Positions 39,717 to 58,465 of a DNA stretch of 64,000 nucleotides are shown here, piece by piece. The position numbers were made by a program, and so were the translations under genes. The notes under the pieces are model-generated. The model had not been told where the DNA came from. It saw only the letters and a list, made by a program, of their open reading frames with translations, and did no database searches. The DNA lies in contig CBHTUR010000018.1 of assembly GCA_966096095.1 (NCBI GenBank), positions 20,271-84,270 on the forward strand, written 5' to 3'. This DNA comes from an uncultured Gemmatimonadaceae bacterium. Its GTDB lineage: Bacteria; Gemmatimonadota; Gemmatimonadetes; Gemmatimonadales; Gemmatimonadaceae. Position 1 is the first letter of the stretch; every line of letters starts with the position of its first letter.

Positions 39717-40967
39717 CTACTCGTAGCGCAGCGCTTCGATCGGGTCGAGGTGCGCCGCACGGCGTGCCGGAATGAGACCGAATACAATTCCGATGCTCAC
39801 TGACACCACGACTGCAATCAAGGTCAGCGTGATGGGCACGGGCGCATCCACGCTGAGCGCCATTGACGCGACGCGACCGAACGCCAGCCCGACGGCGATG
39901 CCAATCGCGCCGCCGATGCCGGTCAATGTGGCGGCCTCAATCAGAAACTGCTGCAGAATGTCACGGCGCGTTGCGCCGAGCGCTTTGCGCACACCGATTT
40001 CGCGCGTGCGACTGGTGACCGACACGGTCATGATCGCCATCACTCCGATGCCGCCCACTAGCAGCGCGACTCCGGAGAGCACAATCATCACGAGAAAGAA
40101 CACGCCGGTCATGCTGTTGAATGTGTCGAGCACCTGGTCTTGCGTGACCAGGTCAAACGTGCTGCCGTCGGCTGGATGCAACCCGCGCATTTCGCGTAGC
40201 GCCATTGTTACCGCGCCCTCGGCGTCGGCCACGCTCACTCCGGTGCGCGGCTTCACTGGAATCCACAACGCGTTCGTCCGATCGATCTGGAATTGATGAT
40301 CCATCGTGCGATAGGGTAGGACCGCACCAACCTCTTGCCCCGGCGGCGCAAAGATGTTCGCCGGCTCCACCCAGATACCGATGACCGCGCACGGGCGTCC
40401 ACCAATTCTCACCCAGCGACCAAGCGCCTGCTCGCGGCCGAACAAACGGAACGCCGTCTTCTCCTGCAACACCACCACTGCGGCGCCGGAGAGTAGTTCG
40501 TTTCGCGTGAACCAGCGTCCGCTTTGTAATTCGCCGCCCTGAATTTCCGTAAAGCGATCGTCCGCACCGAAGACAGCCAACGGCTGTGAACGAACGCCGT
40601 CGGCGTCGATACGCGCGAGCGTTTGCGCCCACAGCGCCGCATAGCCGATCTCGGGGAGTCGGCGAATGCGATCGGCTTCCTGCTCGGTCAAATCGGGACG
40701 AATTCGAACGTCCTTTGGCAGGTTGTCCGGATTGAGCGGTGTTGTCGCGAACTTCTTCATCACGTAGAACGTTGTCGGCCCAGCGACCTCGATGGTATGT
40801 ACGATCTGATCGCGAATGCCTTGCACGATCGCGGCCATGGCCATGACAGTGGCAACTCCAATGACCACGCCGAGAATCGTGAGCGACGAGCGCAGCTTGC
40901 TCACGCGCAACGCGTCGATCGCAATGCGAACGTTTTCCGTTAACGCTTCAATCGCCGGCCTCGACAT
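39717..40967 (-). CDS. MacB/FtsX-family ABC permease P8 (B-type, divergent)
   Basis: RSSLTILGVVIGV, GGIGVMAIM.VSVTSRTREIGVRKALGA, ends LDPIEALRYE. Confidence 0.92.
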   Translation of the reverse strand: MSRPAIEALTENVRIAIDALRVSKLRSSLTILGVVIGVATVMAMAAIVQGIRDQIVHTIEVAGPTTFYVMKKFATTPLNPDNLPKDVRIRPDLTEQEADRIRRLPEIGYAALWAQTLARIDADGVRSQPLAVFGADDRFTEIQGGELQSGRWFTRNELLSGAAVVVLQEKTAFRLFGREQALGRWVRIGGRPCAVIGIWVEPANIFAPPGQEVGAVLPYRTMDHQFQIDRTNALWIPVKPRTGVSVADAEGAVTMALREMRGLHPADGSTFDLVTQDQVLDTFNSMTGVFFLVMIVLSGVALLVGGIGVMAIMTVSVTSRTREIGVRKALGATRRDILQQFLIEAATLTGIGGAIGIAVGLAFGRVASMALSVDAPVPITLTLIAVVVSVSIGIVFGLIPARRAAHLDPIEALRYE

Positions 40968-42212
40968 TCAGGTCTCGGCGCGCATGGCGGTGATCGGATC
41001 GAGCTTCGCCGCGCGCGACGCGGGATACACTCCAAAGAGAACGCCGATACCCGCACCAAGGCCGAGCGCGAGCGCGACGGACCACATCGTCACGCGCGCG
41101 GGAAGCGGCGACACCGTCGAGATGAGCAGGGCGAGCGACCATCCGGCCCCCACTCCAAGCAGTCCGCCAAGGGCGGCGAGTGCAACCGATTCGGCAAGGA
41201 ACTGTCGACGTACGTCGGCCGACGTCGCCCCGACAGCTTTACGCAGGCCGATCTCGTGCGTGCGTTCGGTGACGGCCATGAGCATGATGTTCATGATGAC
41301 GATGCCGCCCACGAGGATGCCGATGGCGACGACCGCTGGCACCACGGCAAAGAGCACGCGGGTGAGCTGCTTCCAGAAATCGACTAACGCATCGGCGGTA
41401 CCGACATCGAAGTTGTTGGGATCGCCCGGACGGAGACCACGGGCAATGCGCATAGCTTCTTCGGCACGCGCCATTGCGGGTGCAACCGCAGCGGCATCGT
41501 TCACCTTCACGGAAATCGTCGTCGCCTGACGCCGACCGTACAGCGCTTCGAACGCGGTGATCGGCATAAGCGCGAAGCCGTCGAACGACTGGCCCAACAC
41601 ACGTCCTTTGCGGGCGACAACGCCGATGATGGTGAAGCGTTGTCCCATTAAACGCACTTCCTGTTCGATCGGACTTACCCCGTCAAACAGCTTCGAGGCT
41701 ACATCGGCGCCAACCACAATCACATTGCGTCGTTCGCGAACTTCGACGTCGCTCAGCGGTCGGCCTGCGGTGAACTTGTAGTCCTGAACGATCTGGTACC
41801 CGGCAGTCACGCCGAACACCAGCACATCGCCGAGCGTGCGATTGCGCCAGACCATATCGGCCTGCGGTGTGGGCCAGCCTGACTGCAGGCTGATCGCTAC
41901 CGCATCGGGCAAGGCGTTTCGCACGGCTTCGGCGTCTTGCTCGTTGACGCGCGGCCGACGCTGCAGCGAGCGGAATTCATCGTCGTTGAAGAGTCCCAGA
42001 CTGATCGGAAGCCGGCGAACCTGAAACGTGTTCATACCGATCATCGCGTCGGCGATGTTCTCTTTGACGTACGCGTTCATGCCTTGAATGATGGCAACGA
42101 CCGCGACCAGAAAGCCGACCGATACAACAATGCCGAGCAACGTGAACGCCGTCCGCAGCGGATTGGTGCGCAACTGCAGCACGCTCAGACGAATCACGTC
42201 GATGAAACGCAT
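40968..42212 (-). CDS. MacB/FtsX-family ABC permease P7 (A-type, divergent)
   Basis: RTAFTLLGI, GGIVIMNIMLMAVTERTHEIGLRKAVGA, ends LDPITAMRAET. Confidence 0.92.
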   Translation of the reverse strand: MRFIDVIRLSVLQLRTNPLRTAFTLLGIVVSVGFLVAVVAIIQGMNAYVKENIADAMIGMNTFQVRRLPISLGLFNDDEFRSLQRRPRVNEQDAEAVRNALPDAVAISLQSGWPTPQADMVWRNRTLGDVLVFGVTAGYQIVQDYKFTAGRPLSDVEVRERRNVIVVGADVASKLFDGVSPIEQEVRLMGQRFTIIGVVARKGRVLGQSFDGFALMPITAFEALYGRRQATTISVKVNDAAAVAPAMARAEEAMRIARGLRPGDPNNFDVGTADALVDFWKQLTRVLFAVVPAVVAIGILVGGIVIMNIMLMAVTERTHEIGLRKAVGATSADVRRQFLAESVALAALGGLLGVGAGWSLALLISTVSPLPARVTMWSVALALGLGAGIGVLFGVYPASRAAKLDPITAMRAET

Positions 42213-42218
42213 AGACTC

Positions 42219-43475
42219 CTACTCGTACCGCAGCGCTTCGACCGGATCGAGATTGGACGCGCGAATCGCCGGGAGCATACCGAATGCCACGCCGGTGAGT
42301 GCGCTCGCACCGAGAGCCGTGATCACGATACTGGCCGGCAGGGCAGCCGGAATACTGGTGTTCGCGCGAATCACCCAAGCCAGCAGCGCGCCGATACCGA
42401 GGCCGATCATTGCGCCGATTGAAGTCAGTGTGGCGGCTTCGACCAGGAACTGCCAGCGAATCGTACCCGCCGTTGCGCCCAGCGCTTTCCGCACGCCGAT
42501 CTCACGAGTGCGCTCGGTGACGGAGATCATCATGATGGCCACCACGCCCACGCCGCCAACGAGCAGCGCAACAGCCGACAGCGCCAAGCCGACGGCAAAG
42601 ATCGCGCTGAACAACTGGTTGAAGGTGTCCATGATGCGGTCCTGCGTGACCAGATAAAACGTTGGCCGCATGCCCGGCTTGAGGCCGCGACGTGCCCGCA
42701 TTGCTGCCATGACTTCGTCCATGACTTCGCTCTGGGCGCCAGTCGCGAATGGACGGACCATCAGGGTGAGGCCGCCCTTCCATACGTCGAGCGTGCGAAT
42801 CGCGGTCTGCAGCGGAATGATCGCGCGCGGCGTGTCCGGCCCTTTTCCTTCGAGCGACTTGAGAAAACCGGCCTTCGGTTGGTAGACGCCAATCACGTGA
42901 AACTGATTGCCGTTGATCATGATGTCCTTGCCGATTGGCTCGGACTCACCGAAGAGCTGCGTTTTCAGGGTGTCGTTAATCAGAACCACCGGTGCGCCGG
43001 CGTCGTGCTCGGATTTGGTGAAGTTGCGTCCGGGCTGAATGTCCGACGCATCGACCTCTGGCCACTCCGTGCTGTACGCATCGTAGCCGACGTTGTCGAC
43101 CCGGCTGTTCTTGTAGGCGAAATTTCCGCTGCCCCCAAGCACGCCAATGGAGGATGCCACACCGGGAAGTCGCTTGATCATTTCCCATTCGTCAAACGAA
43201 ATGGGCGGATTGCGACGGTCGGGACATTTCTCGTCGGTGCCGTCGCACGAGCTCAGATCGGGACTGCGTCGCTGCACGATGAACGTCGTCGCGCCGATCT
43301 CCTCAAGATCCTGCTGAAACGACTGTCGGATACCGTTGACCACGGAGCCCATCGCCACCACGACAAAGACGCCGATCGCGACGCCGGCAATGGTCAACGC
43401 GGCACGCACTTTGTTGGTGCGTATGGCCTCGACCGCCATGCCGATGCCTTCAAACACGAGTAGTAGTCGGTTCAC
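42219..43475 (-). CDS. MacB/FtsX-family ABC permease P6 (B-type)
   Basis: NKVRAALTI.GVAIGVFVVV, CDGTDEKC, GGVGVVAIMMISVTERTREIG, ends LDPVEALRYE; GTG 43475. Confidence 0.92.
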   Translation of the reverse strand: MNRLLLVFEGIGMAVEAIRTNKVRAALTIAGVAIGVFVVVAMGSVVNGIRQSFQQDLEEIGATTFIVQRRSPDLSSCDGTDEKCPDRRNPPISFDEWEMIKRLPGVASSIGVLGGSGNFAYKNSRVDNVGYDAYSTEWPEVDASDIQPGRNFTKSEHDAGAPVVLINDTLKTQLFGESEPIGKDIMINGNQFHVIGVYQPKAGFLKSLEGKGPDTPRAIIPLQTAIRTLDVWKGGLTLMVRPFATGAQSEVMDEVMAAMRARRGLKPGMRPTFYLVTQDRIMDTFNQLFSAIFAVGLALSAVALLVGGVGVVAIMMISVTERTREIGVRKALGATAGTIRWQFLVEAATLTSIGAMIGLGIGALLAWVIRANTSIPAALPASIVITALGASALTGVAFGMLPAIRASNLDPVEALRYE

Positions 43476-43479
43476 GCGG

Positions 43480-44721
43480 TTACTCCTGGCGCAGGGCGGC
43501 GATGGGGTCGAGCTGCGAAGCGCGACTGGCCGGATACATCCCGGCGGCGATGCCCACCGTTGCCCCGGTGACGAGGGCTGCTGCAATCGACCATGGCGCC
43601 ACAGCGGCCGGCAGCGGCGTGAGCGTGGAGATCAGTTTCGCCAACGCGATTCCCAAGGTGATGCCGATGGCCGCACCGAGCGTACTGAGTGTCGCGGCTT
43701 CGACGAGAAACTGTGAGAGAATGTCTGAGCGCCTGGCGCCAAGAGCTTTTCGCACGCCGATTTCGCGGGTGCGTTCTGCGACCGCCACGAGCATGATGTT
43801 CATGATGACCATCGCGCCGACAACCAGGCTGATGGCTGGCAGCGCGGTGCCGAACAACACGAGTCGGCCTTTGAGCTGATTGATGAAGCCGAAGGCGGCA
43901 TCCTGAGTGATCAGTCCGAAGTTGTCCGGCTCGCCCGCCTTCAGTCCGCGAAGGGAGCGAAGCGCCGAACGTGCTGCCTCCATTCCTTCTGCCAGATCTT
44001 GCTGCCGCGGCGCTTGCACGATGAGCGAAGACACATCGCGTTGCGGGCGAATAATGCGCCCCATCGGCGAGGAATACGGCGCGATTGCCAGTCGGTCGAG
44101 CGAAAAACCAAAGACAGATCCTTGCTTTTCGATCACGCCGATGACGGTGAACGGCACGCCGGCAACACGAAGCTGGCGTCCTTCCGGATTCAGGCCCGGA
44201 AAGAAATGCTCCGCGACTTCAACACCGATTACCAGGACCGGTGAACCCGCGCGCACTTCCTGGTCGGTGAACGCGCGTCCTTGTGTGACGGCGAATTTCT
44301 TGATTTCGAAGTAGTTCGCATCGGTGGCCACCGACTGAACCTGACGCGGGCGAGCACCGGCGGCAGATGCGTACTTAAACGACTCGCTGGCGATGCTCGA
44401 CTTCATCGTGGCCGGAAGCGCCGCCCGAACGGCTTCAACGTCGGTCATTCGCAAGAGCGGTCGCCGGGCGGCCGCCCGCGCATCGAAGCCGCGATTGCCG
44501 CCTGGTCCGACGTTGTCAAAGCGGCGCAGCGTGAACGTGTTGGCACCAATCAGTCGCGCGGCGAAATCCTCTTCGACGTAGCGACTCATGCCTTCAACGA
44601 TCGAGACGACGGCGATCAGGAACATCACGCCGATCATCACGCCGAGGAGCGTAAAGAAGCTCTTTAGCTTCTGAACACGGAGCTGCGACAGGGCAAGGCC
44701 GAATGCATCACGGGTATTCAC
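43480..44721 (-). CDS. MacB/FtsX-family ABC permease P5 (A-type)
   Basis: RVQKLKSFFTLLGV, GAMVIMNIMLVAVAERTREIG, ends LDPIAALRQE. Confidence 0.92.
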   Translation of the reverse strand: MNTRDAFGLALSQLRVQKLKSFFTLLGVMIGVMFLIAVVSIVEGMSRYVEEDFAARLIGANTFTLRRFDNVGPGGNRGFDARAAARRPLLRMTDVEAVRAALPATMKSSIASESFKYASAAGARPRQVQSVATDANYFEIKKFAVTQGRAFTDQEVRAGSPVLVIGVEVAEHFFPGLNPEGRQLRVAGVPFTVIGVIEKQGSVFGFSLDRLAIAPYSSPMGRIIRPQRDVSSLIVQAPRQQDLAEGMEAARSALRSLRGLKAGEPDNFGLITQDAAFGFINQLKGRLVLFGTALPAISLVVGAMVIMNIMLVAVAERTREIGVRKALGARRSDILSQFLVEAATLSTLGAAIGITLGIALAKLISTLTPLPAAVAPWSIAAALVTGATVGIAAGMYPASRASQLDPIAALRQE

Positions 44722-44743
44722 CCTGCAAAGTTAACGCCCGGTC

Positions 44744-46009
44744 TTATTCGTGCCGTAGGGCTTCTACCGGATCCAGACGCGAGGCGCGCAGGGCGGGGAG
44801 CATGCCGAACACCACACCGGTCCCGATGCTCGCGATGAGGGCGGTCAGCACGGCAGACCCAGGTATCGAGGTGGGCACGGGTGTGTTGACGCGCACGACC
44901 CAGGCCAAAATCGCCCCGACGATCAGCCCAACGGACGCGCCAATGCTCGTCAGTGTGGCCGCCTCCACCAGGAACTGCCAGAGAATCGTGCCTCGCGTGG
45001 CGCCCAGCGCTTTGCGGACGCCGATTTCTCGGGTGCGCTCCGTTACCGAGATCATCATGATGGCCACGACGCCCACGCCGCCAACCATCAGCGCGACGGC
45101 CGACAGGGCGAGGCCGACCATGAAAATTGCGCCGAAGAGCTGGTCGAAAGTTTGAATCATGCGGTCGGACGCGACAAGCGCGAAGTTATTCGGCGCGCCT
45201 GGCTTGAGGCCGCGGCGGCCACGCAGGAGCTCCGTGACCGCATCCATCACTTCCGACTGCGGCACGCCATCGCGCGGCTTGGTCATGATCATCAGGCCGC
45301 GTCGCCAGACGTCGAGATGGCGATAGGCCGTCATCATTGGCAAAATGGCCCGTGGCTTATCCGGTCCGCGGCCGTCGAGCGTCTTCAGGAATCCGGCCTT
45401 GGTGTGGAAGACGCCGATCACGCTGAACTGCTTGCCCTCGATATCGATTTGCTTGCCGATCGGATCGGAATCGCCAAAGAGTCGCGCCTTCAGCGTGTCG
45501 TTGATGACGGCAACTTGCGCTCCGGCGTCGTGTTCTGACTGCGAAAAGCTGCGGCCCGGCGAAATGTCCGCGACGTCGGTCTTGATCCAGTCCGTGCTTT
45601 GCGCGTCGTAGCCGACGTTCTTCACATGCCGGTCTTTGTAGTCGAAGTCGGCCTGGCCGGACAACCACGCGGTCGCCGTTTCGACCGCCGGCAAGCGGCG
45701 AATCGAGGCCCATTCGTCGAGTGTAATCGCCGGATTCTTGCGGTCGGGGCAGGTGTCGTCGGTACCATCGCATGAGTTGAAGCCTACGCCGCGGCGTCGC
45801 ACCTGAAATGCGGTGGCTCCGAACTCGTCGAGATCAGACTGAAAACTGCGTTTGATGCCGTGCACTGTCGCGCCCATCGCGACCACGACGAACACGCCGA
45901 TGGCGACGCCGCCAATGGTGAGCAGCGCGCGTACCTTGTTGGCGCGCATGGCATCGACGGCCATCCCAATACCTTCGAGCGCCATCGCGAGCCGATCGAC
46001 GAGTCGCAT
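44744..46009 (-). CDS. MacB/FtsX-family ABC permease P4 (B-type)
   Basis: NKVRALLTIGGVAIGVFVVV, CDGTDDTC, ends LDPVEALRHE; ATG 46009. Confidence 0.92.
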   Translation of the reverse strand: MRLVDRLAMALEGIGMAVDAMRANKVRALLTIGGVAIGVFVVVAMGATVHGIKRSFQSDLDEFGATAFQVRRRGVGFNSCDGTDDTCPDRKNPAITLDEWASIRRLPAVETATAWLSGQADFDYKDRHVKNVGYDAQSTDWIKTDVADISPGRSFSQSEHDAGAQVAVINDTLKARLFGDSDPIGKQIDIEGKQFSVIGVFHTKAGFLKTLDGRGPDKPRAILPMMTAYRHLDVWRRGLMIMTKPRDGVPQSEVMDAVTELLRGRRGLKPGAPNNFALVASDRMIQTFDQLFGAIFMVGLALSAVALMVGGVGVVAIMMISVTERTREIGVRKALGATRGTILWQFLVEAATLTSIGASVGLIVGAILAWVVRVNTPVPTSIPGSAVLTALIASIGTGVVFGMLPALRASRLDPVEALRHE

Positions 46010-46013
46010 CGAG

Positions 46014-47249
46014 CTACTCCTGCCGCAGCGCGGCGATGGGATCCAAGCGCGCCGCGCGGCTGGCGGGATAGATACCGGCCGCGATACCAACGCCCGCGCC
46101 AACTACGAGCGCCGCGAGAATTGACCATGGTGCGACAGCCGCTGGTAGCGGCGTCGTTGCCGCGATGATCGCGGCGAGCGCGATGCCGAGGCCAATGCCG
46201 ACGGCGGCGCCAACCACGCTGAGCGTGGCCGACTCGACCAGGAACTGCGACATGATATCGCGGCGTCGCGCGCCCAAGGCCTTACGCACGCCGATTTCCG
46301 CCGTGCGTTCTGCCACGGCCACCAGCATGATGTTCATGATGACCATCGCGCCAACCACCAGTCCGATTGCCGGCAGCGCCGTACCAAACAGCACCATCTT
46401 GGACTTGAGCCCGGCGAAGAACGACATCGCTTCGTCTTGCGTTTCGAGCGCAAAGTTGTCGGGCCGACCGGGAGGAAGTTTGCGGTTGGCGCGCAGCACT
46501 TCCCGCGCCGCGTCCATGCCGTCGACCACCAGATCGGCCGTCGGCGCCTGCACGATCATGCTCTCGATGTCGCCCCTCGGTCGAATGACGCGGAGCAGGG
46601 GACTGGTGTACGGCGCGATGGCCAGCCGATCAAGCGAAAACCCAAATACCGTACCCTGCTTTTCAATGATGCCGATGACTTCGTAGGGCACTCCTCCAAT
46701 GCGCAACTCGCGACCGATCGGATCGAGCCCTTTGAAGAAGTGCGACGCGACCTCCACGCCGATCACGATGACACGTGAGCCGGCGTTCACTTCCTGAGGC
46801 CCGAACGCTCGCCCGCGCTCAAGATTGAACTTCTTAATCGTGAAGTACGAGGCTTCGGTGGCCACCGCCTGCACTTGACGCGGCCGATTGAACGGCGAGT
46901 TCGCGTTGACAAACGTCTCGCTCGTGATGGCGGACTGCGATCCGGGCGGGAGCGCCGTGCGCACCAGTTCGGCGTCGACCGGATAAAGCCGCGGACGGCG
47001 CATGATTTCGCGCCAGTCGAGATTGTCGTCGGTGTTGAAGTCGTTCCACCGACGTAGCGTAAACGTGTTCACGCCAAACAGTTTTCCGGCAAAATCGTTC
47101 TCGACGTAGCGGCTCATGCCTTCGACAATCGACACAACCGCGATGAGAAACATGACGCCGATGGTGACGCCGATGAGCGTAAAGAAGCTTTTAAGCTTCT
47201 GCACGCGCAGGGTGTTCAACGCCAGCCGGACCGCCTCGTAAAGGGGCAT
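46014..47249 (-). CDS. MacB/FtsX-family ABC permease P3 (A-type)
   Basis: RVQKLKSFFTLIGV, ends LDPIAALRQE; ATG 47249 overlaps the P2 stop (TAATG). Confidence 0.92.
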   Translation of the reverse strand: MPLYEAVRLALNTLRVQKLKSFFTLIGVTIGVMFLIAVVSIVEGMSRYVENDFAGKLFGVNTFTLRRWNDFNTDDNLDWREIMRRPRLYPVDAELVRTALPPGSQSAITSETFVNANSPFNRPRQVQAVATEASYFTIKKFNLERGRAFGPQEVNAGSRVIVIGVEVASHFFKGLDPIGRELRIGGVPYEVIGIIEKQGTVFGFSLDRLAIAPYTSPLLRVIRPRGDIESMIVQAPTADLVVDGMDAAREVLRANRKLPPGRPDNFALETQDEAMSFFAGLKSKMVLFGTALPAIGLVVGAMVIMNIMLVAVAERTAEIGVRKALGARRRDIMSQFLVESATLSVVGAAVGIGLGIALAAIIAATTPLPAAVAPWSILAALVVGAGVGIAAGIYPASRAARLDPIAALRQE

Positions 47250-48502
47250 TACTCGTACCTCAGGGCTTCGACAGGATCGAGTCGCGCCGCACGCGACGCC
47301 GGAAGCAATCCAAACAGAATGCCGGTGACCGCACTCGCGCCGAGCGCCACGACAACGGCGGTGGGCGGTATGCTCGCCTCGATCGGCGAGAACGAGCGAA
47401 TCGCGAGTGCCGCGAGCCACCCGATAAAGAGCCCGATCGCTCCACCGATGCCGGTGAGCGTTGCGGCCTCAACGAGAAACTGCCAGAGAATCGTTGCGCG
47501 TGTGGCGCCGAGCGCTTTGCGCACGCCAATCTCTCGGGTGCGCTCCGTAACGGAGATCATCATGATGGCGACTACGCCAACGCCGCCGACGATGAGACCC
47601 ACGCCGGAAAGCGCGATCATCACGAGGAAGAACATGCCGAAGACTTTGTTGTACGTCTCGAACAGTTTGTCTTGCGTAATGATCGCAAACGACGACTCTT
47701 CGCCGGGGCGCAATCCGCGCTGACCGCGCATTGTTGCCGTCACGTCGTCGAGCACTTGATCGCGCGTGTATTCCGCGCGCGGCTTCACAGCCAGCGCTAT
47801 GCCGCCGGGGCGCGCACCGAGGTAGCGCGTGAGCGCCTGCACGGGAACGACCGCTTTCGGACGCTCGCCGCCGCTCAGAAAACTGGCGTTGTCCTTGTAT
47901 ACGCCTATGACTTCGAAGGGCACGCCATTGAACGTGACCGTTTTGCCGATCGGATCGAGTTCACCGAGCAGGCGCTCCGCCATGAGCGTTGACAAGACGG
48001 CGACACGGGCACCTGTGCGCGCTTCGGCCGCGGTGAAGGCCCGTCCTGGAAACACGTCGGGCGCGCTGATGGACGGCCATTCTGCCGAGTAGCCTTCGAG
48101 CGGCGCCGCCGAGAGTGAGCGATCACGGAATTTCGCGGCCACGTTCCAATCGAGCCGCTCGCCAACGAACTCCACGCTGCTCAGGCGGCGTAGCGCATCG
48201 ATTTCGCTTGGTCGGATGGGCGGATTGCGCAGCCACACGCAGGTGCCGTCGGATCCGTCGCAGTTCTCAAACGAAATGGGATAGCGCACAACGAAGAACG
48301 TGTTGGGGCCCGTGGCCGCAAAGTCCCGCGCAACGCTCTGGTTGATACCGTGAATGGCGGCCGAGATGGCGACGACCACGAATACGCCCACGGCGATGCC
48401 AAGAATCGTGAGGCCAGCGCGCACTTTGTTTGAGCGGCAGGCGTCGATGGCAATACGAACCCCTTCCGCGATATTCGAGAGCCGTAAGGAAAGTTGACTC
48501 AT
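47249..48502 (-). CDS. MacB/FtsX-family ABC permease P2 (B-type)
   Basis: NKVRAGLTILGIAVGVFVVV, CDGSDGTC, ends LDPVEALRYE. Confidence 0.92.
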   Translation of the reverse strand: MSQLSLRLSNIAEGVRIAIDACRSNKVRAGLTILGIAVGVFVVVAISAAIHGINQSVARDFAATGPNTFFVVRYPISFENCDGSDGTCVWLRNPPIRPSEIDALRRLSSVEFVGERLDWNVAAKFRDRSLSAAPLEGYSAEWPSISAPDVFPGRAFTAAEARTGARVAVLSTLMAERLLGELDPIGKTVTFNGVPFEVIGVYKDNASFLSGGERPKAVVPVQALTRYLGARPGGIALAVKPRAEYTRDQVLDDVTATMRGQRGLRPGEESSFAIITQDKLFETYNKVFGMFFLVMIALSGVGLIVGGVGVVAIMMISVTERTREIGVRKALGATRATILWQFLVEAATLTGIGGAIGLFIGWLAALAIRSFSPIEASIPPTAVVVALGASAVTGILFGLLPASRAARLDPVEALRYE

Positions 48503-48505
48503 CGT

Positions 48506-49753
48506 CTATTCCTGTCGCAGCGCGGCGATCGGATCGAGTCGCGACGCACGACTGGCGGGATATACGCCCGAGATGATGCCCACCCCCGCCCCGAGGCCGA
48601 CGCCGACAATGATCGACCATGGCGCGACGCTTGCTGGCAGTGGCGTGGTGGCGGAAATGATTTTCGCCAACGCGATGCCGAGCGCGACACCAATCGCGGA
48701 ACCGACGGTGCCGAGCGTTGACGCTTCGATCAGGAATTGCGAGAGGATATCGAACCGACGCGCGCCAAGCGCTTTGCGAATGCCGATCTCGCGCGTGCGT
48801 TCGGCGACAGCAACGAGCATGATGTTCATGATGACGATCGCGCCCACCACGAGTCCAATGGCGGGCAGGGCAATGCCAGCCAGCACGAGGTAGCGCTTGA
48901 TCTTGTTCCAGAATTCCAGCGCCGAGTCGGCTGTCTGCAACGCGAAATCATCTTTCTGACCCGGACGCAACCGATGGACGCCGCGCATGGTCGCGCGCAC
49001 GATCTCCATTGTTTCCTTCATCGCCGGATCGGAGGGCGCTTGAATCGCGATGGCATCGACAATGTTCGGTCGCGAGTTCAGCAGACGGCGCGCAGGCGAC
49101 CGCCACGACGTGACCATGAAATTGTCGAACGAGATGCCGAAGGCTTTGCCCTGCGATTCTGCGATGCCGACGATCTTGTACGGCACGCCGCCCATCTTCA
49201 CGTCACGACCGATCGGATCGAGCCCGGGATAGAGCCGCTCGGCGGCGTCGGGACCGATAACGACCGACTTCTCGCCGCGCGCGAGCTCCTGTTCTGACAG
49301 TGCGCGACCGCTGCTGACACCGAGTTTCTTCACGTTGAAGTAGTCGCCGTCGACAGCGAATACCTGCACGCGGCGCGGTTTCGCGCTCACGGTTGAAGTG
49401 ACGGGCACCTGATCTTCGCTGATCAGGTACCAACGCACGTCGCCGGGCAGGTCGTGCACGACTGGCGCGACATCGGAAATTTCGAGGCGCGGACGCCGAC
49501 GGTATTCTTCCCAGGTCGCGTCATCCACGTCGCCGATGTTGATGTTCGGACGACTGCGAAGTTCGAAGGTGTTCACGCCGATCAGCTTGCCCACCAGGTC
49601 GTCCTGCATGTAGCGACCCATCCCTTCGACGATCGACACGACCGAGATCAGGAACATGACGCCAATGCAGACGCCCAAGAGCGTGAAGGCGCTCTTGAGC
49701 TTTTGGACGCGAATGGTGTTGAGAGCGAGGCGAATCGCTTCGAACAGTTGCAT
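48506..49753 (-). CDS. MacB/FtsX-family ABC permease P1 (A-type)
   Basis: RVQKLKSAFTLLGV, GAIVIMNIMLVAVAERTREIG, ends LDPIAALRQE. Confidence 0.92.
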   Translation of the reverse strand: MQLFEAIRLALNTIRVQKLKSAFTLLGVCIGVMFLISVVSIVEGMGRYMQDDLVGKLIGVNTFELRSRPNINIGDVDDATWEEYRRRPRLEISDVAPVVHDLPGDVRWYLISEDQVPVTSTVSAKPRRVQVFAVDGDYFNVKKLGVSSGRALSEQELARGEKSVVIGPDAAERLYPGLDPIGRDVKMGGVPYKIVGIAESQGKAFGISFDNFMVTSWRSPARRLLNSRPNIVDAIAIQAPSDPAMKETMEIVRATMRGVHRLRPGQKDDFALQTADSALEFWNKIKRYLVLAGIALPAIGLVVGAIVIMNIMLVAVAERTREIGIRKALGARRFDILSQFLIEASTLGTVGSAIGVALGIALAKIISATTPLPASVAPWSIIVGVGLGAGVGIISGVYPASRASRLDPIAALRQE

Positions 49754-49843: not shown

Positions 49844-50650
49844 TTAGTGCACGCGCTCCGTGTGGATCTTGGCCGCGTATTGATCGCGCGACTCATCGCT
49901 CGAAATGACGCCGTCGCGTAGCACAATGACACGCCGGGCATGCACGGCGATGTCCGGTTCGTGCGTAACCATGACGACCGTCTGCCCCTGCGATGCGAGC
50001 TCCTCGAACACCCGCATGATTTCCTCGGAGGTGTGCGAATCGAGGTTACCAGTGGGTTCGTCGGCGAGCAGAATCGAGGGCTTGTTCACCAACGCCCGGG
50101 CGATCGCGACGCGCTGACGCTGACCGCCCGAGAGCTCGTTGGGACGGTGCCCCATACGTGCGCCTAGCTGCACGCGTTCGAGCGCTTCCGTAGCGCGACG
50201 CTTCCGTTCGTCGGCCGAAACGCCCGCGTACACGAGCGGCAGTTCGACGTTTTGCAGTGCCGAGGCGCGCGGCAACAGGTTGAACGTCTGAAAGACGAAT
50301 CCGATTTCCTTGTTGCGCACGCGCGCCAGCTGGTCGTCGGACATGGCCGAGACGAGCATGCCATTGAGCCAGTATTCGCCTTCGTTCGGCGTGTCGAGGC
50401 AACCGATGGTGTTCATCAGCGTCGACTTACCGGAGCCGGAGGGACCCATGATGGCTACGTACTCGTTCCGACGAATGGCCAGATCGACGCCGCGGAGCGC
50501 GCGGACGATTTCACCACCCATGTCGTACTGACGCTTGAGCTGACGGGTCACGATGACCCAGTCCTTATCAGGCGCCGCGCCGTTGGTGGTGGTGACTACC
50601 CGGCGTTCGCCGGTCGTGCTCAGGCCAATGTCGTCAAGCGTATCGGTCAC
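49844..50650 (-). CDS. ABC transporter ATP-binding protein (MacB/LolD-type)
   Basis: [46 protein letters not shown]. Confidence 0.96.
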
Positions 50651-51939
50651 GATTTCTTCCCGGTTGGCGGGGTCTTCTTGGTGTCTTCAGGCTTGGCGGT
50701 CTTGATCAGGGCCCCGTCTTTCAGCTCACGGATTGCCTGATACGTGCCCGCCACGATGGTCTCACCGGCCTTGAGCCCGTCGAGAACCTCGAAGTGGCGC
50801 TCGCCGGCAATACCAACTTTAACGGGGCGGAAGCTCACTTTGTTGTCCGTACCCACTACGAACACCCCTTCCACGTCGCGCTTGCCCACTTCTTTGGCCG
50901 GCTGTGACCGTCCGACGGTGACCGCCGTGTCGGCATTCGGCAGCTTCTCGTTCTCGCGGACCGTCAGCGCGATGATTGGAATCGAGAGGGCCTTGGTCCG
51001 GGTGGCCGTCACAACCTTGGCCGTCGCCGAGAAATCGGGGCGGGTTTCGCCCGGTGGATTGATGAGCCGGACCTTGACCTCGTAGTCGATGGCCTGGTCG
51101 CCCGTGTTGGAGCTCGCCGTCTTGGTGACGGAGCTGTTCGAAATCTCGACCACCTTGCCGATGAAGGTCGTGTCGGGGAAAGCGTCGATCTGGATCACGG
51201 CCGAATCGCCCACGCTGATGCGGGCCACGTCGGTCTCGTCAACCTTCACTTTCGTTTCAAGCACGCTCATGTCGCTGATGGTTAGCAGCGTCGCGGCGTC
51301 CTTGTTGAGGGTTCCCATGATGGCCGTTTCGCCCTCTTCGACATTGAGTCGCGTGACTTTGCCGCTCATCGGCGCGATGATCGTGGTGCGGCTCAACGCC
51401 TGCTTGGCATCGCGCACTGAAGCCTGCGCCTGCTCCACGTTGTAGTTGGCCGCCTCGAGGAGCGACTTGTTGACTTCGGCCTGCGTCTTCAGCTGCTCAA
51501 GCTGTTCGTCACTCACGAGCGCCGGCGACTGCGTTTTGATGTTCATGGTGCGCTCGTACGTCTTTTGCGCCTGCAACACGTTTGCGCGTGCCTGTGCCGC
51601 CTGCGCCTTGCTCGACGAGAGCTGCGCTTCGGCGCGCTGCAAGGCGGCCGTCACTTGCTCCGGATCGATCTGCAGGAGGAACTGACCCTTCTTCACCATG
51701 TCGCCTTCTTTCACGGCCAGCTTGACGATCTTGCCGGTGACGTCGGCCGACACGTTGACCTTGGTGCGCGGCTGGATCTGACCGCTGGCGGTCACCGATG
51801 CCACGAGATCGCGCGCTTCAACCTTTTCGGTTCGAACTTCGACCGGCTTGGTTTGGTTCTTGTTGATGCTGACGTATGTAAGGCCGCCGATCGCCGCAAT
51901 GGCGCCGACGCCGAGAAGAACCTTGACGGTTTTGGTCAT
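50647..51939 (-). CDS. MacA-like periplasmic adaptor (membrane fusion protein)
   Basis: N-terminal TM anchor, ASGQIQP, V.EGD.VKKGQ.L..ID, alpha-hairpin, [18 protein letters not shown]. Confidence 0.93.
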
Positions 51940-51951
51940 GAACGAATCCGG

Positions 51952-53445
51952 TTAACGAAGGGGACGGCCGACTGCGGCCTCGAGGGCCGTAAACGCCCGT
52001 TGCACGTCATATACAGCATTGATGCGATCCGATTCGGCGCGTTCAAAATCGCCCCGCGCCTGTTGCAGATCGACGATACTGGCCTGGCCCACGCGATAGC
52101 GTTCCTGCGCCAACGCAAGCGCCGAGCGCGCCGAGGCCACGTTCTGCTCCTGCAGTGCGACCGTCTGTTGGGCCGTTGTCAGTGACAAGAAGGCGGCTTG
52201 CACATCGGCCGTGACGCGCAGCTCCTGCGCGCGCAGATCGTTCTGCGTGTTCTTGCGCTGCACCTGCGCCTGCTCAATCTGCTGTTCGCGGCGGAACCCG
52301 TTGAAGATCGGCAGCGAGAAGGTGGCGGAGATGTTGTACGGGTTGCGCGTGAAGTCGAACGGATACTTGCCTTGACCGTCGCGAATGGCCTGTTCTTGCG
52401 CCGACGAGAAGGCGATGCTGTTGCACTGCGACAGCGTATTTGTAAGACCCAGGGCCGCGCGCACTTCCTGCGACGCGATGCAGCTGGCCTTGCCCGACGC
52501 GGTGCTGGCTTTGCCCTGCTCGATGAGCAGGTCGGTGTTGGTGTAGCGGTTGGTGAAGCCAGAGAGTCCGGCGCTTAAGGAGAACGACGGGTAGTAGCTG
52601 GCCTTGGCCGAGGCGATGTTGCGCACGCTGACTTCTTCACGCGCGCGCAGGGCTTCGATCTGCGGGTTCGATTTCTTCGCCATATCGAGAATGGCAGCCA
52701 TCTCGAGTGTTGGCGCGGCGGGGAGACTCGGATCGAGGCGTGCGCCCGTCACGGGAGGCACGCCGATTTGCTGAAAGAGGCGAATGATTTCAATCGCCGC
52801 CTGATTCCGCTGATTGATGGCCGCGACGCGCTGCTGACCGTCAGCCACCTCGGCGCGCTGAACGTCGAGTTGCGTTCCTGATCCGACCTGCAGGCGAGCG
52901 CGTGCGAGCTGCAATTGCACGGTAGTCGTAGCGACCAGCGAATCTTGCAGCGCGGCGCGGGTCTGCGCCTGCAGCGCCGTCAGATACTGCGTCGTGACCG
53001 CATTCCGAACGTTCTGCTCGGACGCTGCGATATCCGCTTCGGTTGCTTCCGCAGACGCGTGCGCGGCGCGGCGATCATTGAGCGTGGCGAACGACAGATT
53101 CAGCGACGCATTCGCGTTGATATCGGTCGACAGCTGATCGTTGGTCGAGCCGAAAGCCTGACCTTGGAAGAACGTCTGGCGTCCTTCGCGATAACCGGTA
53201 CCGAAGCTGGTATTGACGCTGGGCAGGAGCGCGCCGTTGGCCGCCCGAACCTGGGCCGCTGCCGTTCGACGGGCATTCAACGCCGACTGATAGGTGGGGT
53301 TGTTGCGGCGTGCGAGTGCGATGGCATCCGTCAGCGAAATGACGCCACCAGCGGCGGGCGCGGCGGGCGCCTGCGCGTGCAGTGGAGCGGAAGCCAGCAA
53401 GCCGGCTATCAGAGAGGCCCGGATTGCAGAACGGGGGATGCGCAT
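51952..53445 (-). CDS. TolC-family outer membrane factor
   Basis: Signal peptide ending LHA-Q, ISLTDAIALARRNNP, ASYYPSFSL, FSLPIFNG, ERYRVG; ATG 53445 chosen as start. Confidence 0.92.
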   Translation of the reverse strand: MRIPRSAIRASLIAGLLASAPLHAQAPAAPAAGGVISLTDAIALARRNNPTYQSALNARRTAAAQVRAANGALLPSVNTSFGTGYREGRQTFFQGQAFGSTNDQLSTDINANASLNLSFATLNDRRAAHASAEATEADIAASEQNVRNAVTTQYLTALQAQTRAALQDSLVATTTVQLQLARARLQVGSGTQLDVQRAEVADGQQRVAAINQRNQAAIEIIRLFQQIGVPPVTGARLDPSLPAAPTLEMAAILDMAKKSNPQIEALRAREEVSVRNIASAKASYYPSFSLSAGLSGFTNRYTNTDLLIEQGKASTASGKASCIASQEVRAALGLTNTLSQCNSIAFSSAQEQAIRDGQGKYPFDFTRNPYNISATFSLPIFNGFRREQQIEQAQVQRKNTQNDLRAQELRVTADVQAAFLSLTTAQQTVALQEQNVASARSALALAQERYRVGQASIVDLQQARGDFERAESDRINAVYDVQRAFTALEAAVGRPLR

Positions 53446-53553
53446 GACAAAAAGGGCGAAGGGGAGTTCGTAGACGGGGGGTCGTACGATCACATCAGCA
53501 GGGCGGTTTCAAACTCGGGAACTGCACGAGATCAGCGTGGGATCAGCGCCGGA

Positions 53554-54364: not shown

Positions 54365-57300
54365 ATGACGGAGCTTCCCGCCGGGTGGACCCCCGCCCAG
54401 ACCGATGAGCGACTTCCGCGAAGCACTCGTTGGCCTGTGCTATGGGTGGCGAGTGCGTCGATGGCGCTGCTGGCCATGGCGGCGTGGCAGCGACGCCCGG
54501 GATGGGTGGCGCTCGCTTTCGTGGCCGCGGGCACCCTTGGCTCGGTCGCCACCAATCGCTCAATTCGCGCGCCCCGTTGGATCGCCACAGGTGCCTCAGT
54601 GCTGTTGGCCATGGCGCTGACGCTGGCAGTGGGGGATACGCGCACGTTGGACACGGTCACGCGCGACTGGCGCGAATGGTCGTCTGCCGAGCGCGAGGCG
54701 CGTGCTACGCGCGTGGCGGCGAGCCTGACCTCGACGGCCAGTGCACTAACCGCCGCCGCCCAGCGCATCGCTCAGGACACAGCGCTGCTGTCGACGCTCG
54801 GCGCCGGCGTCCTCGACGCGACGACCGAAGCGTCGACGGCAACCGCGGTGCTCAGTCCACCGTTGGCCGGTCGGACGGAATCGGCAATTCTGGTGTTTCG
54901 TGGCTCGGCGCTGATGGCGCGCGCAGGGCAGTTACGCACCACGGTAGCGGCGCGCGGACAGCCAGGCATTCGCCTGGTCGATGAGCCGTTCTACTCCTCG
55001 CTCGAAGCGCGGGCGATTTCGCCGAATGGGGCCGATCAGGTTGTCACGGTCGCGCTGATCGCCGCGCGTCCGCCCGCCGATCATTTTGCCCGCGCACTGA
55101 TCGAGTCGACCGGACGAACCGATCTTTCCAGCACCATTGTCGAGTCGCCGGATTCGTCGCGTGTCGAAGAAGGCACGACGGTGATTGTCGTTCCGGACGG
55201 TCCGCGACGACTGGCGCGCGTACGCGCGCTTGCCCGTACCGATGGCGAGGCGCAACTGGAATTGCTGCAGCGCGCCCGTGCGCGCACGGCGGTACCCGTG
55301 GTGCTCGCGGCGTTGCTCGTGCTGGCTGTCAGCTGGCGGCGGCCGGCGCGCACTGTGCATCGCATGGCGGTGACGCTCGTTCTGTTGCTCGCGGTTGCCG
55401 TGGCGCCGCTGAGCGCACTCTCGAACGTGTCGCCGCTGTTCGATGCCTCGAGCTATTACGTTCGCATGGCCGGGCCACTCACGGCCAACGTTGCGGCGTT
55501 GTTGCTGACCGCAGCGCTCGGTCTGGCCATGCTGTTCCTGATTCTTCGAAGTGGCCGCGTCGTGCGCATCACGAGCGCCAAGGCATTGGCCTCGCTGATG
55601 GTGATCGTGAGCGCGACGCTCGGTCCGTTCGTGTTGCGCGATCTCTCGCGCGGCATCGCATTGCCGGCGGATGGCGTGAGCATTGAACTCTGGATCGCCT
55701 GGCAACTCGCGATTGCGCTGGCCGGCGCGTCGGTGCTGCACGTTGGCGCGGCCGCCGGGCAAACGATTCTCGGCGGTCGTCGCGGATTGCCAGGTGTGGC
55801 GGCGCCGTCGATGGCGATTGTCGCCGCGCTGCTGGCACCGAACCTCTGGCAGTCGCCGGGAGGATGGCCCGGTTGGTATCCGGTGCTTTGGGCGCTGGCG
55901 ATTCTCGCGCTGGCCTTCACTCGTCGAGGGGTGGCGCTGGTCACGGGGGCCGCGATCATTGCCGGCACTGGTGCGGTGACGTTGACCTGGGGCGCGACGG
56001 TGCGGGCGCGGATGAGCCTCGCGCAGCACGATTTGGCGCGACTCTCGGCCGTCGACGAAAATGCATATCGACTGCTTGAGCGCTTTGCGCTGACGATTGC
56101 CGGCGACCCGCGGGGCGTTGCACAGAGTGATGGACTGCTTCGGCGTTTCGCCGCGAGCGAGTTGGCGCAGGCCGGCTATCCGACGCGCATGGCACGCTGG
56201 GATTCTTTGCCGGCGCCAACACCCATGAGTGAGTTGCGACTGGCGCCGCTGACCGATTCGATCGGTGCGCAAAGCGTAATCGCGTCGATGGCGCGTGAAA
56301 GCGGCGCCGTGGAAATCCGCGCGGTCGAAGATGGGCCGACGACGGTGCTGATTGCGGCGATTCCGGCGCCCGATCATACCGTAACGACGGTGGCGGTTCC
56401 CCCACGCACGCGTTTGTTGCCGTCTGATCCGTTTGCGCTGCTGACTGGTCTCGCCGGAACGCGCGGCGGCGAGCCTCCGTATCGACTGACGTTGTCGGCG
56501 GCGACACCACTCGATTCCACGTCGCGTCCGCTGGTCTGGCGCCGTCGTGGCGACACCATGCATGGCGACGGTGTGGCGTCGGGCGGTCTCGAGTCTCGCC
56601 TGATCCACGTCGAAGTGGACCTGCGCAGTCTTGATGTACTCGCGCCGCGCGGGGCGCTTCTGGTGCTGCTCGATGTCGCCGTCGTTCTCGTGCTATGGGG
56701 CACGAGTGCGATGGCCGATGGAGCATTCGGCCGCTGGTTACGCGTGCGTCGGGCGCGACTGGCGCGATCGTATCGCGTGCGACTCAGCGCGGCTCTGCTT
56801 GCGTCGTTTCTTGCCCCGGCCGCGGTGTTCGCCGGATGGTCGTGGTATCGCTTGCAAGATGACGATCGTGCGTCGCGCGAACTGCTGGTGCGCGAAGCGC
56901 TCCGCACAGCGGCCAGCGATGTTGCTCGTCGCGATTTAGCGACCACGGCTTCGAGCGTCGGATCACCGCTCTTTCTCTATCGCTCGGGGCAGCTGCTCAC
57001 GGCGAGTGATACGTTGCTGTCATCGTTGGCACCGCTGGGTCGGCTCCTGCCGCTCACCAACGACGAAAGTGATTTCGCCAGCGACGATGTTTTCGCAACG
57101 CGACGCGTGCCGGTGGGTAACTCCCAAGCGCTGGTTGGCTTTCGTCGCGTTGCCGCGATCGCCGAGGGGTTAGTGGTCGTCACGCCGGCGCGCGGCGATG
57201 AATTTGCACTTGACGAACGACGGGCCGATCTCGGCGTGTTATTGCTGTTCACGGCGTCGCTGGGTGCATTGGCGGCGTTCTGGTTGAGCGGCGTCGCTGC

Positions 57301-58465
57301 ACGCTCACTGGCCCGGCCGGTTGGCGCACTGCGCGAAGCTGCGCTGAGCATCGCCGCGGGACGCGACGCCACGGCACTCGGCAGCGCTCCCGCGACGGAG
57401 TTCGCGCCAGTCTATCGCGCATTCGGTCGCATGTCGGAGGATTTGACGACCAGCCGCGCGGCTCTCGAGGCGGCCCAACGGCGCACCGCAGCCGTGCTAC
57501 AGCACGTGGCCAGCGGTGTGGTGGCGTTTGATCGAGACGGCGCGGTAACGATTGCCAATCCGCGCGCGGAAGAAATCCTCGCTGCCTCACTGCCGCCTGG
57601 AACGGCCTCACTTGATTCGCTGCCCGCCGAGTGCGCACCGATCGTGGTACGTTGCCGCACGTTCTTGGCGCACGACAACGATGAAGACGCATTCGATCAC
57701 CAATGGCGCGGGCGACAGCTGCGAGGCCGTCTGACCAGACTGCCAGGTGGCGCGGTTCTCACGCTCGATGACGTGACCGAGCTGGCGTCCGCGCAGCGCG
57801 TGCTGGCGTGGGGTGAGATGGCGCGTCAGGTCGCGCATGAGATCAAAAATCCGCTCACACCGATTCGCCTGGGTGTTCAGCATTTGCGTCGTGCCTATCG
57901 CGACGGGCGTCCGGAATTCGGCGATATCCTCGACACGAACGTGACCCGCGTCCTCTCGGAGATTGATCGACTGGACGAAATCGCGCGCGCCTTCAGCCGC
58001 TACGGAACAGCTCCCGATCAACGCGCACCGGCCGTGCAGGTCGATGTGCGCGCGGTCGCGCACGATGTGCTTGAACTCGAGCGTCTCGGCGAAAGCGGAG
58101 TTCAGTGGCAGTTCGACGCGCCGGACGATACCGAGAGCGTGTTCGCACTGGGGCAACGTGACGAACTCAAAGAGGTGCTGCTCAACCTGCTTGAGAACGC
58201 CCGACTTGCACACTCTCACGTGGTGCGCGTGTCGGTGCTCCGCGACGGAGAGACTGCGGTGATCGAAGTGCGGGACGACGGGCAGGGGATTGCACCCGAT
58301 GTGTTGCCGCACGTCTTTGAACCGCACTTCTCGACTCGTACCAGCGGCAGTGGTTTGGGGCTCGCCATCAGCCGGCGTCTGATTGAGGGTTGGGGCGGGC
58401 GCATTACGCTCGAAAGCGTGCCGGGTGCGGGAACGTGCGTTCGCGTGAGCCTGAAGATCGGTTAA
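54365..58465 (+). CDS. Very large multi-TM sensor histidine kinase (NtrY-like HAMP-PAS-HisKA-HATPase)
   Basis: AWGEMARQVAHEIKNPLTPI, NLLENA, DDGQGI, FEPHFSTR, GSGLGL. Confidence 0.92.
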   Translation: MTELPAGWTPAQTDERLPRSTRWPVLWVASASMALLAMAAWQRRPGWVALAFVAAGTLGSVATNRSIRAPRWIATGASVLLAMALTLAVGDTRTLDTVTRDWREWSSAEREARATRVAASLTSTASALTAAAQRIAQDTALLSTLGAGVLDATTEASTATAVLSPPLAGRTESAILVFRGSALMARAGQLRTTVAARGQPGIRLVDEPFYSSLEARAISPNGADQVVTVALIAARPPADHFARALIESTGRTDLSSTIVESPDSSRVEEGTTVIVVPDGPRRLARVRALARTDGEAQLELLQRARARTAVPVVLAALLVLAVSWRRPARTVHRMAVTLVLLLAVAVAPLSALSNVSPLFDASSYYVRMAGPLTANVAALLLTAALGLAMLFLILRSGRVVRITSAKALASLMVIVSATLGPFVLRDLSRGIALPADGVSIELWIAWQLAIALAGASVLHVGAAAGQTILGGRRGLPGVAAPSMAIVAALLAPNLWQSPGGWPGWYPVLWALAILALAFTRRGVALVTGAAIIAGTGAVTLTWGATVRARMSLAQHDLARLSAVDENAYRLLERFALTIAGDPRGVAQSDGLLRRFAASELAQAGYPTRMARWDSLPAPTPMSELRLAPLTDSIGAQSVIASMARESGAVEIRAVEDGPTTVLIAAIPAPDHTVTTVAVPPRTRLLPSDPFALLTGLAGTRGGEPPYRLTLSAATPLDSTSRPLVWRRRGDTMHGDGVASGGLESRLIHVEVDLRSLDVLAPRGALLVLLDVAVVLVLWGTSAMADGAFGRWLRVRRARLARSYRVRLSAALLASFLAPAAVFAGWSWYRLQDDDRASRELLVREALRTAASDVARRDLATTASSVGSPLFLYRSGQLLTASDTLLSSLAPLGRLLPLTNDESDFASDDVFATRRVPVGNSQALVGFRRVAAIAEGLVVVTPARGDEFALDERRADLGVLLLFTASLGALAAFWLSGVAARSLARPVGALREAALSIAAGRDATALGSAPATEFAPVYRAFGRMSEDLTTSRAALEAAQRRTAAVLQHVASGVVAFDRDGAVTIANPRAEEILAASLPPGTASLDSLPAECAPIVVRCRTFLAHDNDEDAFDHQWRGRQLRGRLTRLPGGAVLTLDDVTELASAQRVLAWGEMARQVAHEIKNPLTPIRLGVQHLRRAYRDGRPEFGDILDTNVTRVLSEIDRLDEIARAFSRYGTAPDQRAPAVQVDVRAVAHDVLELERLGESGVQWQFDAPDDTESVFALGQRDELKEVLLNLLENARLAHSHVVRVSVLRDGETAVIEVRDDGQGIAPDVLPHVFEPHFSTRTSGSGLGLAISRRLIEGWGGRITLESVPGAGTCVRVSLKIG

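Follow-up and report, generated by a model that had tools for sequence, protein, structure and literature searches.

The MacB permeases of the MacAB-TolC pumps in E. coli, A. actinomycetemcomitans and A. baumannii (structures 5nik, 5lil and 5gko) consist of four transmembrane (TM) helices, the first two of which flank the periplasmic Porter and Sabre subdomains, and their genes are accompanied by those for an adaptor and an outer-membrane factor. The same permease architecture and the same partner genes are found in an operon on the minus strand of a 64,000-nucleotide stretch of DNA from an uncultured Gemmatimonadaceae bacterium (assembly GCA_966096095.1, contig CBHTUR010000018.1, positions 20,271 to 84,270 of the forward strand), which is referred to as the window below. 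The operon contains four kinds of genes, coding for an outer-membrane factor, an adaptor, an ATPase and eight permeases (P1 to P8). Unlike MacB, these permeases have no fused ATPase, and they are of two types that occur in strict pairs, with the A-type (P1, P3, P5 and P7) and the B-type (P2, P4, P6 and P8) alternating in four A-B pairs per operon. Here, we focus on the periplasmic loop that follows TM1 in these permeases, and in particular on a pair of cysteines in the loops of P2, P4 and P6.

In MacB, the same loop connects strand beta1 to helix alpha1 and has an acidic stretch with an aromatic residue after it. The segment in P2 reads Y-P-I-S-F-E-N-C-D-G-S-D-G-T-C-V-W, and differs from that of MacB in being eight residues longer and in carrying the Cys pair, which is absent from three aligned MacB sequences. 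A second point of comparison is LolCDE, which likewise has a stand-alone LolD-like ATPase and two paralogous permeases of the type VII ATP-binding cassette (ABC) family encoded side by side. However, the operon studied here also includes an adaptor and an outer-membrane factor, pointing to efflux, the Foldseek matches to LolC and LolE have E-values some ten orders of magnitude weaker than the matches to MacB, and the A-B heterodimer is putative. The Spr0693-0695 system of S. pneumoniae (5xu1), YknXYZ and DevBCA are MacB-like systems in which the ATPase is separate from the permease, as here, but they are described with a single permease type (PMC5985334), and the available portions of that review report no natural Cys pair in this loop for any of the three. 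The P2 orthologues of a sister family in the same order have the same operon type, the same A-B pairs and a D-G-S-D-E turn followed by P-W, but differ at the two positions of the Cys pair, as detailed below.

Two further candidates for comparison were set aside. The available part of a LolCDE paper (PMC9595528), considered as a guide to the equivalent loop, discusses the loops between TM3 and TM4 and has no bearing here, and YbjP of YbjP-MacAB-TolC is a partner of TolC and irrelevant to the loop. Among the open-access titles and abstracts listed as matches for Gemmatimonas MacB, for disulfides in type VII ABC proteins and for tandem or heterodimeric MacB, nothing was found on this loop or its Cys staple.

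On balance, we lean towards the interpretation that the loops are conserved Porter elements that serve as signatures of their paralogues, and that a disulfide staple near the substrate site in P2, P4 and P6 aids a pair-specific preference. VKOR and DsbA-like enzymes would form the disulfide between cysteines that are six residues apart, thereby closing an eight-residue, mostly acidic turn of the form C-[DN]-G-[ST]-x-[DE]-x-C. The Cys pair would have arisen once in the family of this genome, in the lineage of the ancestor of P2, P4 and P6, replacing a pair of serines (S-DGSDE-x-S in the sister family), and would then have been retained through two later duplications of whole A-B pairs. Judging from homology to Y315 and F320 of E. 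coli MacB, the loop would be on the Porter subdomain's inner face, close to where the stalk helices end at the top, which is the presumed substrate-binding place. The staple would stiffen the loop, and the paralogue-specific loops would help to set the substrate preference of each A-B pair.

The cysteine pair of the B-type permeases P2, P4 and P6

The preliminary description of this DNA had pointed out a variable loop after TM1 and a CDGxDxxC motif in the B-type permeases, and suggested a disulfide-closed, acidic and possibly Ca2+-binding loop. The loop and motif strings that it quoted are all present exactly, and its start and end coordinates correspond to the outer edges of the motifs in P6 and P2. 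The sequence check showed the motif as CDGSDGTC in P2, CDGTDDTC in P4 and CDGTDEKC in P6, and its absence from P8, as had been described. In the open reading frames (ORFs) of at least 150 amino acids in the genome, which amount to 3.68 million residues, CDG.D..C occurs three times, as compared to 0.25 times expected from the composition. Because the three motifs occupy the same alignment position in three paralogues, they are explained by common descent rather than by chance or independent events. The motif cysteines are the only two cysteines in P4 and P6, and P2 has cysteines only at residues 22 (in the N-terminal helix), 81 and 88. The A-type permeases contain zero or one cysteine.

The pair is strictly conserved within the family of this genome. 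Both cysteines were identified in all 120 orthologues of P2 with 77-100% identity, with C-x6-C spacing in 119 of them (one N-terminally cut) and C-x9-C in one. The latter (P0110) reads CDGSDGSDDMC, with a three-residue (GSD) repeat inside the closed loop and both cysteines kept. Public names of P2 orthologues with 79-85% identity suggest Gemmatimonas and Gemmatimonadaceae, so that the genus is presumably Gemmatimonas. Likewise, both cysteines are present in 26 of 26 P2, P4 and P6 proteins from 13 arrays of the genus. For a wider sample, the best P2-type genes were taken from 89 loci in 151 genomes of the phylum, where one locus (L129) had no P2-type protein and one gene was taken twice. In the family of this genome (f1), sampled in 31 genomes from 19 genera, all of the 46 distinct proteins of the P2/P4/P6 type have both cysteines, and these two are the only invariant residues of the loop. 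No cysteine was found at either position in any of 31 proteins from the sister family (f2), 23 of which have serine at both positions (S-DGSDE-x-S-P-W), nor in any of 11 proteins from other families (f4-f8), giving 0/42 outside f1. The 127 full-length representatives of the 50%-identity clusters closest to P2 divide into 120 without any cysteine in the loop and seven with exactly two, and a single cysteine was seen in none. Since the outgroups lack the cysteines, a single gain of the pair in f1 is most likely.

In some genomes of the genus, a further P2-like gene with 55% identity is located far from the main array. The distant copy that was examined (L091) has kept the Cys pair, as CDGTDETC.

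We propose that the Cys pair of the C81/C88 type probably forms a periplasmic disulfide that closes a small acidic loop, in line with the preliminary description. A disulfide is the best reading because the compartment is oxidizing, exactly two cysteines are available, being the sole ones in P4 and P6, the two are always jointly present or jointly absent, and a natural Ser/Ser counterpart exists. The genome encodes one VKOR homolog (76 bits, above the cut-off) and three Thioredoxin_4 (DsbA-like) proteins above the cut-off. A search for DsbB in the genome (99.95% completeness) found none. VKOR is present in 44 of 44 f1 genomes, 44 of 44 f2 genomes and 12 of 12 f3 genomes. Two unpublished genomes, G080 and G179, are counted in these tallies, and leaving them out does not change the result. 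With VKOR in all 44 f2 genomes, the explanation that the serines of the sister family are due to missing oxidation machinery could be ruled out.

The only VKOR homolog of the genome (G000:C18:85642-86019) is located about 1.4 kb past the end of the window and about 15 kb from the permease array. A similar spacing of about 15-18 kb was observed in the genus genomes G125, G090, G157, G011, G013 and G114, which may be plain synteny.

Paired cysteines would be equally expected if the two residues stayed reduced, acting as a redox switch between thiols and disulfide or as a two-thiol site for a soft metal such as Zn or Cu. We consider this very unlikely, since a periplasm with VKOR and DsbA-like enzymes is oxidizing, the Ser/Ser version in the sister family keeps the turn yet cannot bind soft metals, and there is no conserved His or additional Cys nearby.

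We also considered the possibility that the closed acidic loop is a site for Ca2+ or another hard cation, in which the disulfide would pre-organize Asp, Ser, Thr and Asn ligands. The loop does contain many Asp, Glu, Ser, Thr and Gly residues. In the 46 C-x6-C loops of f1, position 1 is Asp in 37 and Asn in seven, a swap that is common in Ca2+ loops, position 4 is Asp in 31, and position 5 is Asp or Glu in 38. Furthermore, the acidic S-DGSDE-x-S-P-W segment is kept in most of the sister-family proteins, and the corresponding segment of E. coli MacB reads D-F-G-D-D-D-P-Q-Y. However, the acidic positions vary, with Ala, Gly, Asn, Val or Thr at position 4 in 13 of the 46 loops and a single acidic residue in six of 49 loops (for example CSGDAGSC and CNGSADSC), and the sequence appears to depart from the spacing of D-x-D-x-D-G and EF-hand sites. 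The available portions of two reviews (PMC5985334 and PMC8277102) report no Ca2+ site in MacB. Because the acidic positions vary, we regard a Ca2+ site as possible but unlikely from the sequences.

Position and conservation of the loops

In the predicted structures, the segment in question is the loop between beta1 and alpha1 in the first beta-alpha-beta motif of the Porter subdomain, an assignment that follows from the order of elements in the P2 model and from the Foldseek matches to MacB. The AlphaFold2 (AF2) model of P2, with a predicted local distance difference test score (pLDDT) of 91.6, has the element order expected for MacB. A long TM1/stalk helix extends to residue 64, residues 69-72 form beta1, a coil (73-88) and a short helix (89-92) come next, and alpha1 spans residues 98-105, followed by the remaining periplasmic domain and three further TM helices. 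In the model of P1 (pLDDT 82.6), beta1 spans residues 62-66, and a coil (67-77) leads into a short helix (78-86) before alpha1 at 92-101. The short helix in the loop of P1 ends in a basic R-R-R-P anchor. The Foldseek search with P2 matched MacB (5gko, 5lil and 5nik) and Spr0695 (5xu1) with E-values of 1e-23 to 4e-27 and a probability of 1.00. The best structural match was 5xu1_M (TMq 0.76, root-mean-square deviation 4.3, 410 columns). In MacB, the first beta-alpha-beta motif of the Porter subdomain comes directly after the TM1 stalk, according to a review (PMC5985334). The loop thus comes after TM1 and beta1 and is periplasmic by the MacB topology, as had been proposed.

With phmmer, residues Y75-W90 of P2 were aligned to Y315-Y327 of E. 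coli MacB (Y-P-G-K-D-F-G-D-D-D-P-Q-Y), with three internal gaps. Y315 and F320 of MacB, together with F503 and M507, are described as a plausible erythromycin-binding site or putative substrate site in section 5.7.9 of a review (PMC8277102), which places the site mostly in the Porter subdomain, toward the interdomain interface, and cites validation with bacitracin and colistin. Okada et al. (2017; PMC5673888) described a loop with the helix P-alpha-1 as the only periplasmic part that differs among the MacB structures, and we infer that this is the same loop as the segment discussed here. Given the homology to Y315 and F320, a location of the loop near the putative substrate site is favored, where its three-dimensional position would be that of its MacB counterpart, and a role for the loop in substrate specificity is plausible.

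Partner specificity had been proposed as the other option, in which the loops would dock the MacA-like adaptor rather than line the path of the substrate. Against this, the operon has one adaptor gene for four pairs with differing loops (28-29% identity between paralogues), whereas surfaces that bind the same partner would be expected to be alike. Moreover, two residues of the homologous loop in E. coli are assigned to the putative substrate patch and not to the MacA interface (PMC8277102). Because the four pairs share a single MacA-like gene, we consider partner specificity the less likely of the two options, and docking of the adaptor a doubtful explanation.

The preliminary description called the loops hypervariable, and this part did not hold. 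The arrays of 20 related genomes were retrieved for a comparison of the loops, and each loop type was found to be nearly unchanged among its orthologues. Within each of the eight orthologous groups, which include 4-13 genomes of the genus each, the amino acid identity is 0.77-0.90 for the loop and 0.70-0.85 for the remaining periplasmic domain. The ratios of nonsynonymous to synonymous substitutions (dN/dS) estimated by the method of Nei and Gojobori are 0.09-0.18 for the loop and 0.08-0.18 for the remaining periplasmic domain, values that are rough because dS is 0.5-1.6 and thus close to saturation. Despite the roughness of the ratios, the direction is clear: the loops are under purifying selection, and are as constrained as the remaining periplasmic domain or more.

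A history of diversifying selection, with continual retuning of specificity by hypervariable loops, was suggested by the differences in sequence and length between the paralogues. Here, the identity is 0.28-0.29 for the loop, with gaps, as compared to 0.34-0.36 for the remaining periplasmic domain and 0.63 for TM2-4. However, the peak of the divergence between paralogues lies outside the loop. The most divergent 20-residue segments start at P2 residues 108-119, with identities of 0.12-0.17 versus 0.20-0.26 for the loop, and the start of the Sabre subdomain is more divergent than the loop. In addition, the loops of P7 and P8 are recognizable in the sister family, the latter as F-x-x-T-P-L-N-P-D-x-L-P-K-[DE]-V-R-I-R-P. 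As the conservation of orthologous loops equals or exceeds that of the remaining periplasmic domain, we find diversifying selection highly improbable. Each loop is a stable, conserved signature of its paralogue rather than a fast-evolving segment.

Several observations count against our interpretation, in addition to the near-saturated dS values. The evidence for the disulfide is comparative rather than chemical or structural. Since the Cys pair appears to have a single origin, its paired presence would reflect one event followed by retention and not many gains, and since the proteins of the sister family do without the cysteines, the staple is dispensable for the basic function. The loop has the lowest confidence of the periplasmic domain in both models, with a pLDDT of 75-79 in P2 and a mean of 64 for residues 71-80 in P1. 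The three gaps in the alignment with E. coli MacB and the eight extra residues in P2 make the residue-level equivalence to Y315 and F320 uncertain. The MacB substrate patch, which goes back to Crow et al. (2017, PNAS), is described here after a review (PMC8277102).

Operon organization and evolution of the permease pairs

All eight permeases are alignable end to end, and the three that were scanned (P1, P2 and P8) have matches to PF12704 (MacB_PCD; 113-118 bits) and PF02687 (FtsX; 76-86 bits). The domains, the four TM helices, the Porter and Sabre subdomains between TM1 and TM2 and the fold similarity identify them as permeases of the type VII ABC (MacB/FtsX) family. They fall outside MacB proper (NCBIfam NF007826), as they have no fused nucleotide-binding domain (NBD) and score 151-192 bits versus a cut-off of 966, and outside the LolCE equivalog TIGR02212, to which they score 44-58 bits versus a cut-off of 362. 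The adaptor and the outer-membrane factor are encoded directly upstream on the same strand, as in tripartite pumps of the MacAB-TolC type. Judging from these sequence features, the system is a tripartite pump of the MacB type in which the ATPase is a separate protein and the permeases are paired. The coordinates of the genes and loops are listed in Table 1.

The outer-membrane factor scores 156 bits to an NCBIfam subfamily of the TolC family, under the cut-off of 225. The adaptor scores 158 bits to RND_mfp, above the cut-off of 94.9, and 149 bits to the MacA equivalog, below the cut-off of 342. Among the NCBIfam models, the ATPase matches the NBD part of MacB best, with 263 bits, and LolD second best, with 229 bits, each score being under the respective cut-off.

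Table 1. Genes of the operon, loops of the permeases and distant P2-like genes. Positions refer to the window, except in the last row, where they are given by genome and contig.
Feature	Position	Strand	Pfam domains	Remarks
TolC-like outer-membrane factor	51952..53493	-	OEP (184.9 bits)	First gene of the operon
MacA-like periplasmic adaptor	50647..51939	-	HlyD_D23, HlyD_3, Biotin_lipoyl_2	Only adaptor gene of the operon
Stand-alone ABC ATPase	49844..50650	-	ABC_tran	Only ATPase of the operon; GTG start uncertain
P1, A-type permease	48506..49753	-	MacB_PCD, FtsX	Loop RSRPNINIGDVDDATWEEYRRRPRL at 49484-49558
P2, B-type permease	47249..48502	-	MacB_PCD, FtsX	Loop residues 73-95 at 48218-48286; C81-C88 (CDGSDGTC) at 48239-48262
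P3, A-type permease	46014..47249	-		Loop RRWNDFNTDDNLDWREIMRRPRL at 46986-47054
P4, B-type permease	44744..46009	-		CDGTDDTC at 45749-45772
P5, A-type permease	43480..44721	-		Loop RRFDNVGPGGNRGFDARAAARRPLL at 44452-44526
P6, B-type permease	42219..43475	-		CDGTDEKC at 43224-43247
P7, A-type permease	40968..42212	-		Older pair; loop at 41946-42017
P8, B-type permease	39717..40967	-		Older pair, without the Cys pair; loop at 40689-40757
Distant P2-like genes	G005:C50:368599-369858, G009:C13:233591-234847, G090:C1:4095952-4097214			

The eight permeases, of 411-421 amino acids each, are encoded between positions 39717 and 49753, in genes that are tightly packed, from a one-base overlap up to a spacing of 22 nt. 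The likely start of P6 is a GTG at 43475, 4 nt past the stop of P5. The ATG of P3 overlaps the stop codon of P2 by one base (47249), and P8 begins right after the stop of P7 (40967/40968), which suggests translational coupling both within and between pairs. On the opposite strand and divergent from the operon, an ORF of 1366 amino acids (54365-58465) has many predicted membrane segments and a C-terminal end that is histidine-kinase-like by eye, and could be the sensor of the operon.

The related arrays in the 20 genomes contain two, four, six or eight permeases, with the A- and B-types strictly alternating. The size of the array varies within the genus, with whole A-B pairs gained or lost as units, and the P3/P4 pair is present in only four of 13 genus arrays, including that of the window. 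A tree of 101 permeases from the fetched arrays and the window has A and B subtrees that are congruent with each other. It shows P7/P8 as an old pair that also occurs in the sister family, and P1/P2, P3/P4 and P5/P6 as products of the duplication of whole pairs. In three genomes, P8-type matches with one in-frame stop (TAA or TAG) were observed (G009:C7:201486-202730, G021:C87:324962-326212 and G023:C150:9549-10796), and these may be broken genes or have mis-set boundaries.

The strict alternation and the congruent trees give indirect support to a putative heterodimer of the A- and B-type permeases, which would work in the manner of LolC/LolE. A complex prediction for P1 and P2 (alignments A3 and A2) scored 0.24 against a mark of 0.32 in a run without controls, and was counted neither for nor against an A-B dimer.

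Distinct loops on a shared pump

A more far-reaching idea, to which we give little credence, is that up to four A-B heterodimers are interchangeable and share a single ATPase, a single adaptor and a single exit duct, each heterodimer having its own asymmetric, loop-lined entry cleft. One of the two loops in each cleft would have the stapled acidic turn and the other would end in the basic W-x-x-[WY]-R-R-R-P helix, and the staple would be a rigid element, perhaps dependent on cations, that selects for cargo with a positive charge, for example cationic peptides. If true, a single pump chassis would export several classes of cargo.

The feature itself is a small elaboration, specific to one lineage, of a fold that is already known. 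Substrate recognition by MacB-type pumps is described as still poorly understood, and the candidate patch includes this loop (PMC5985334, PMC8277102). The array offers two kinds of contrast in this regard: four paralogous pairs with distinct, conserved loops on one common chassis, and a lineage-wide difference between Cys/Cys and Ser/Ser at two fixed positions. The system is mainly of value as a natural setting in which to test what this loop does in MacB-type pumps.

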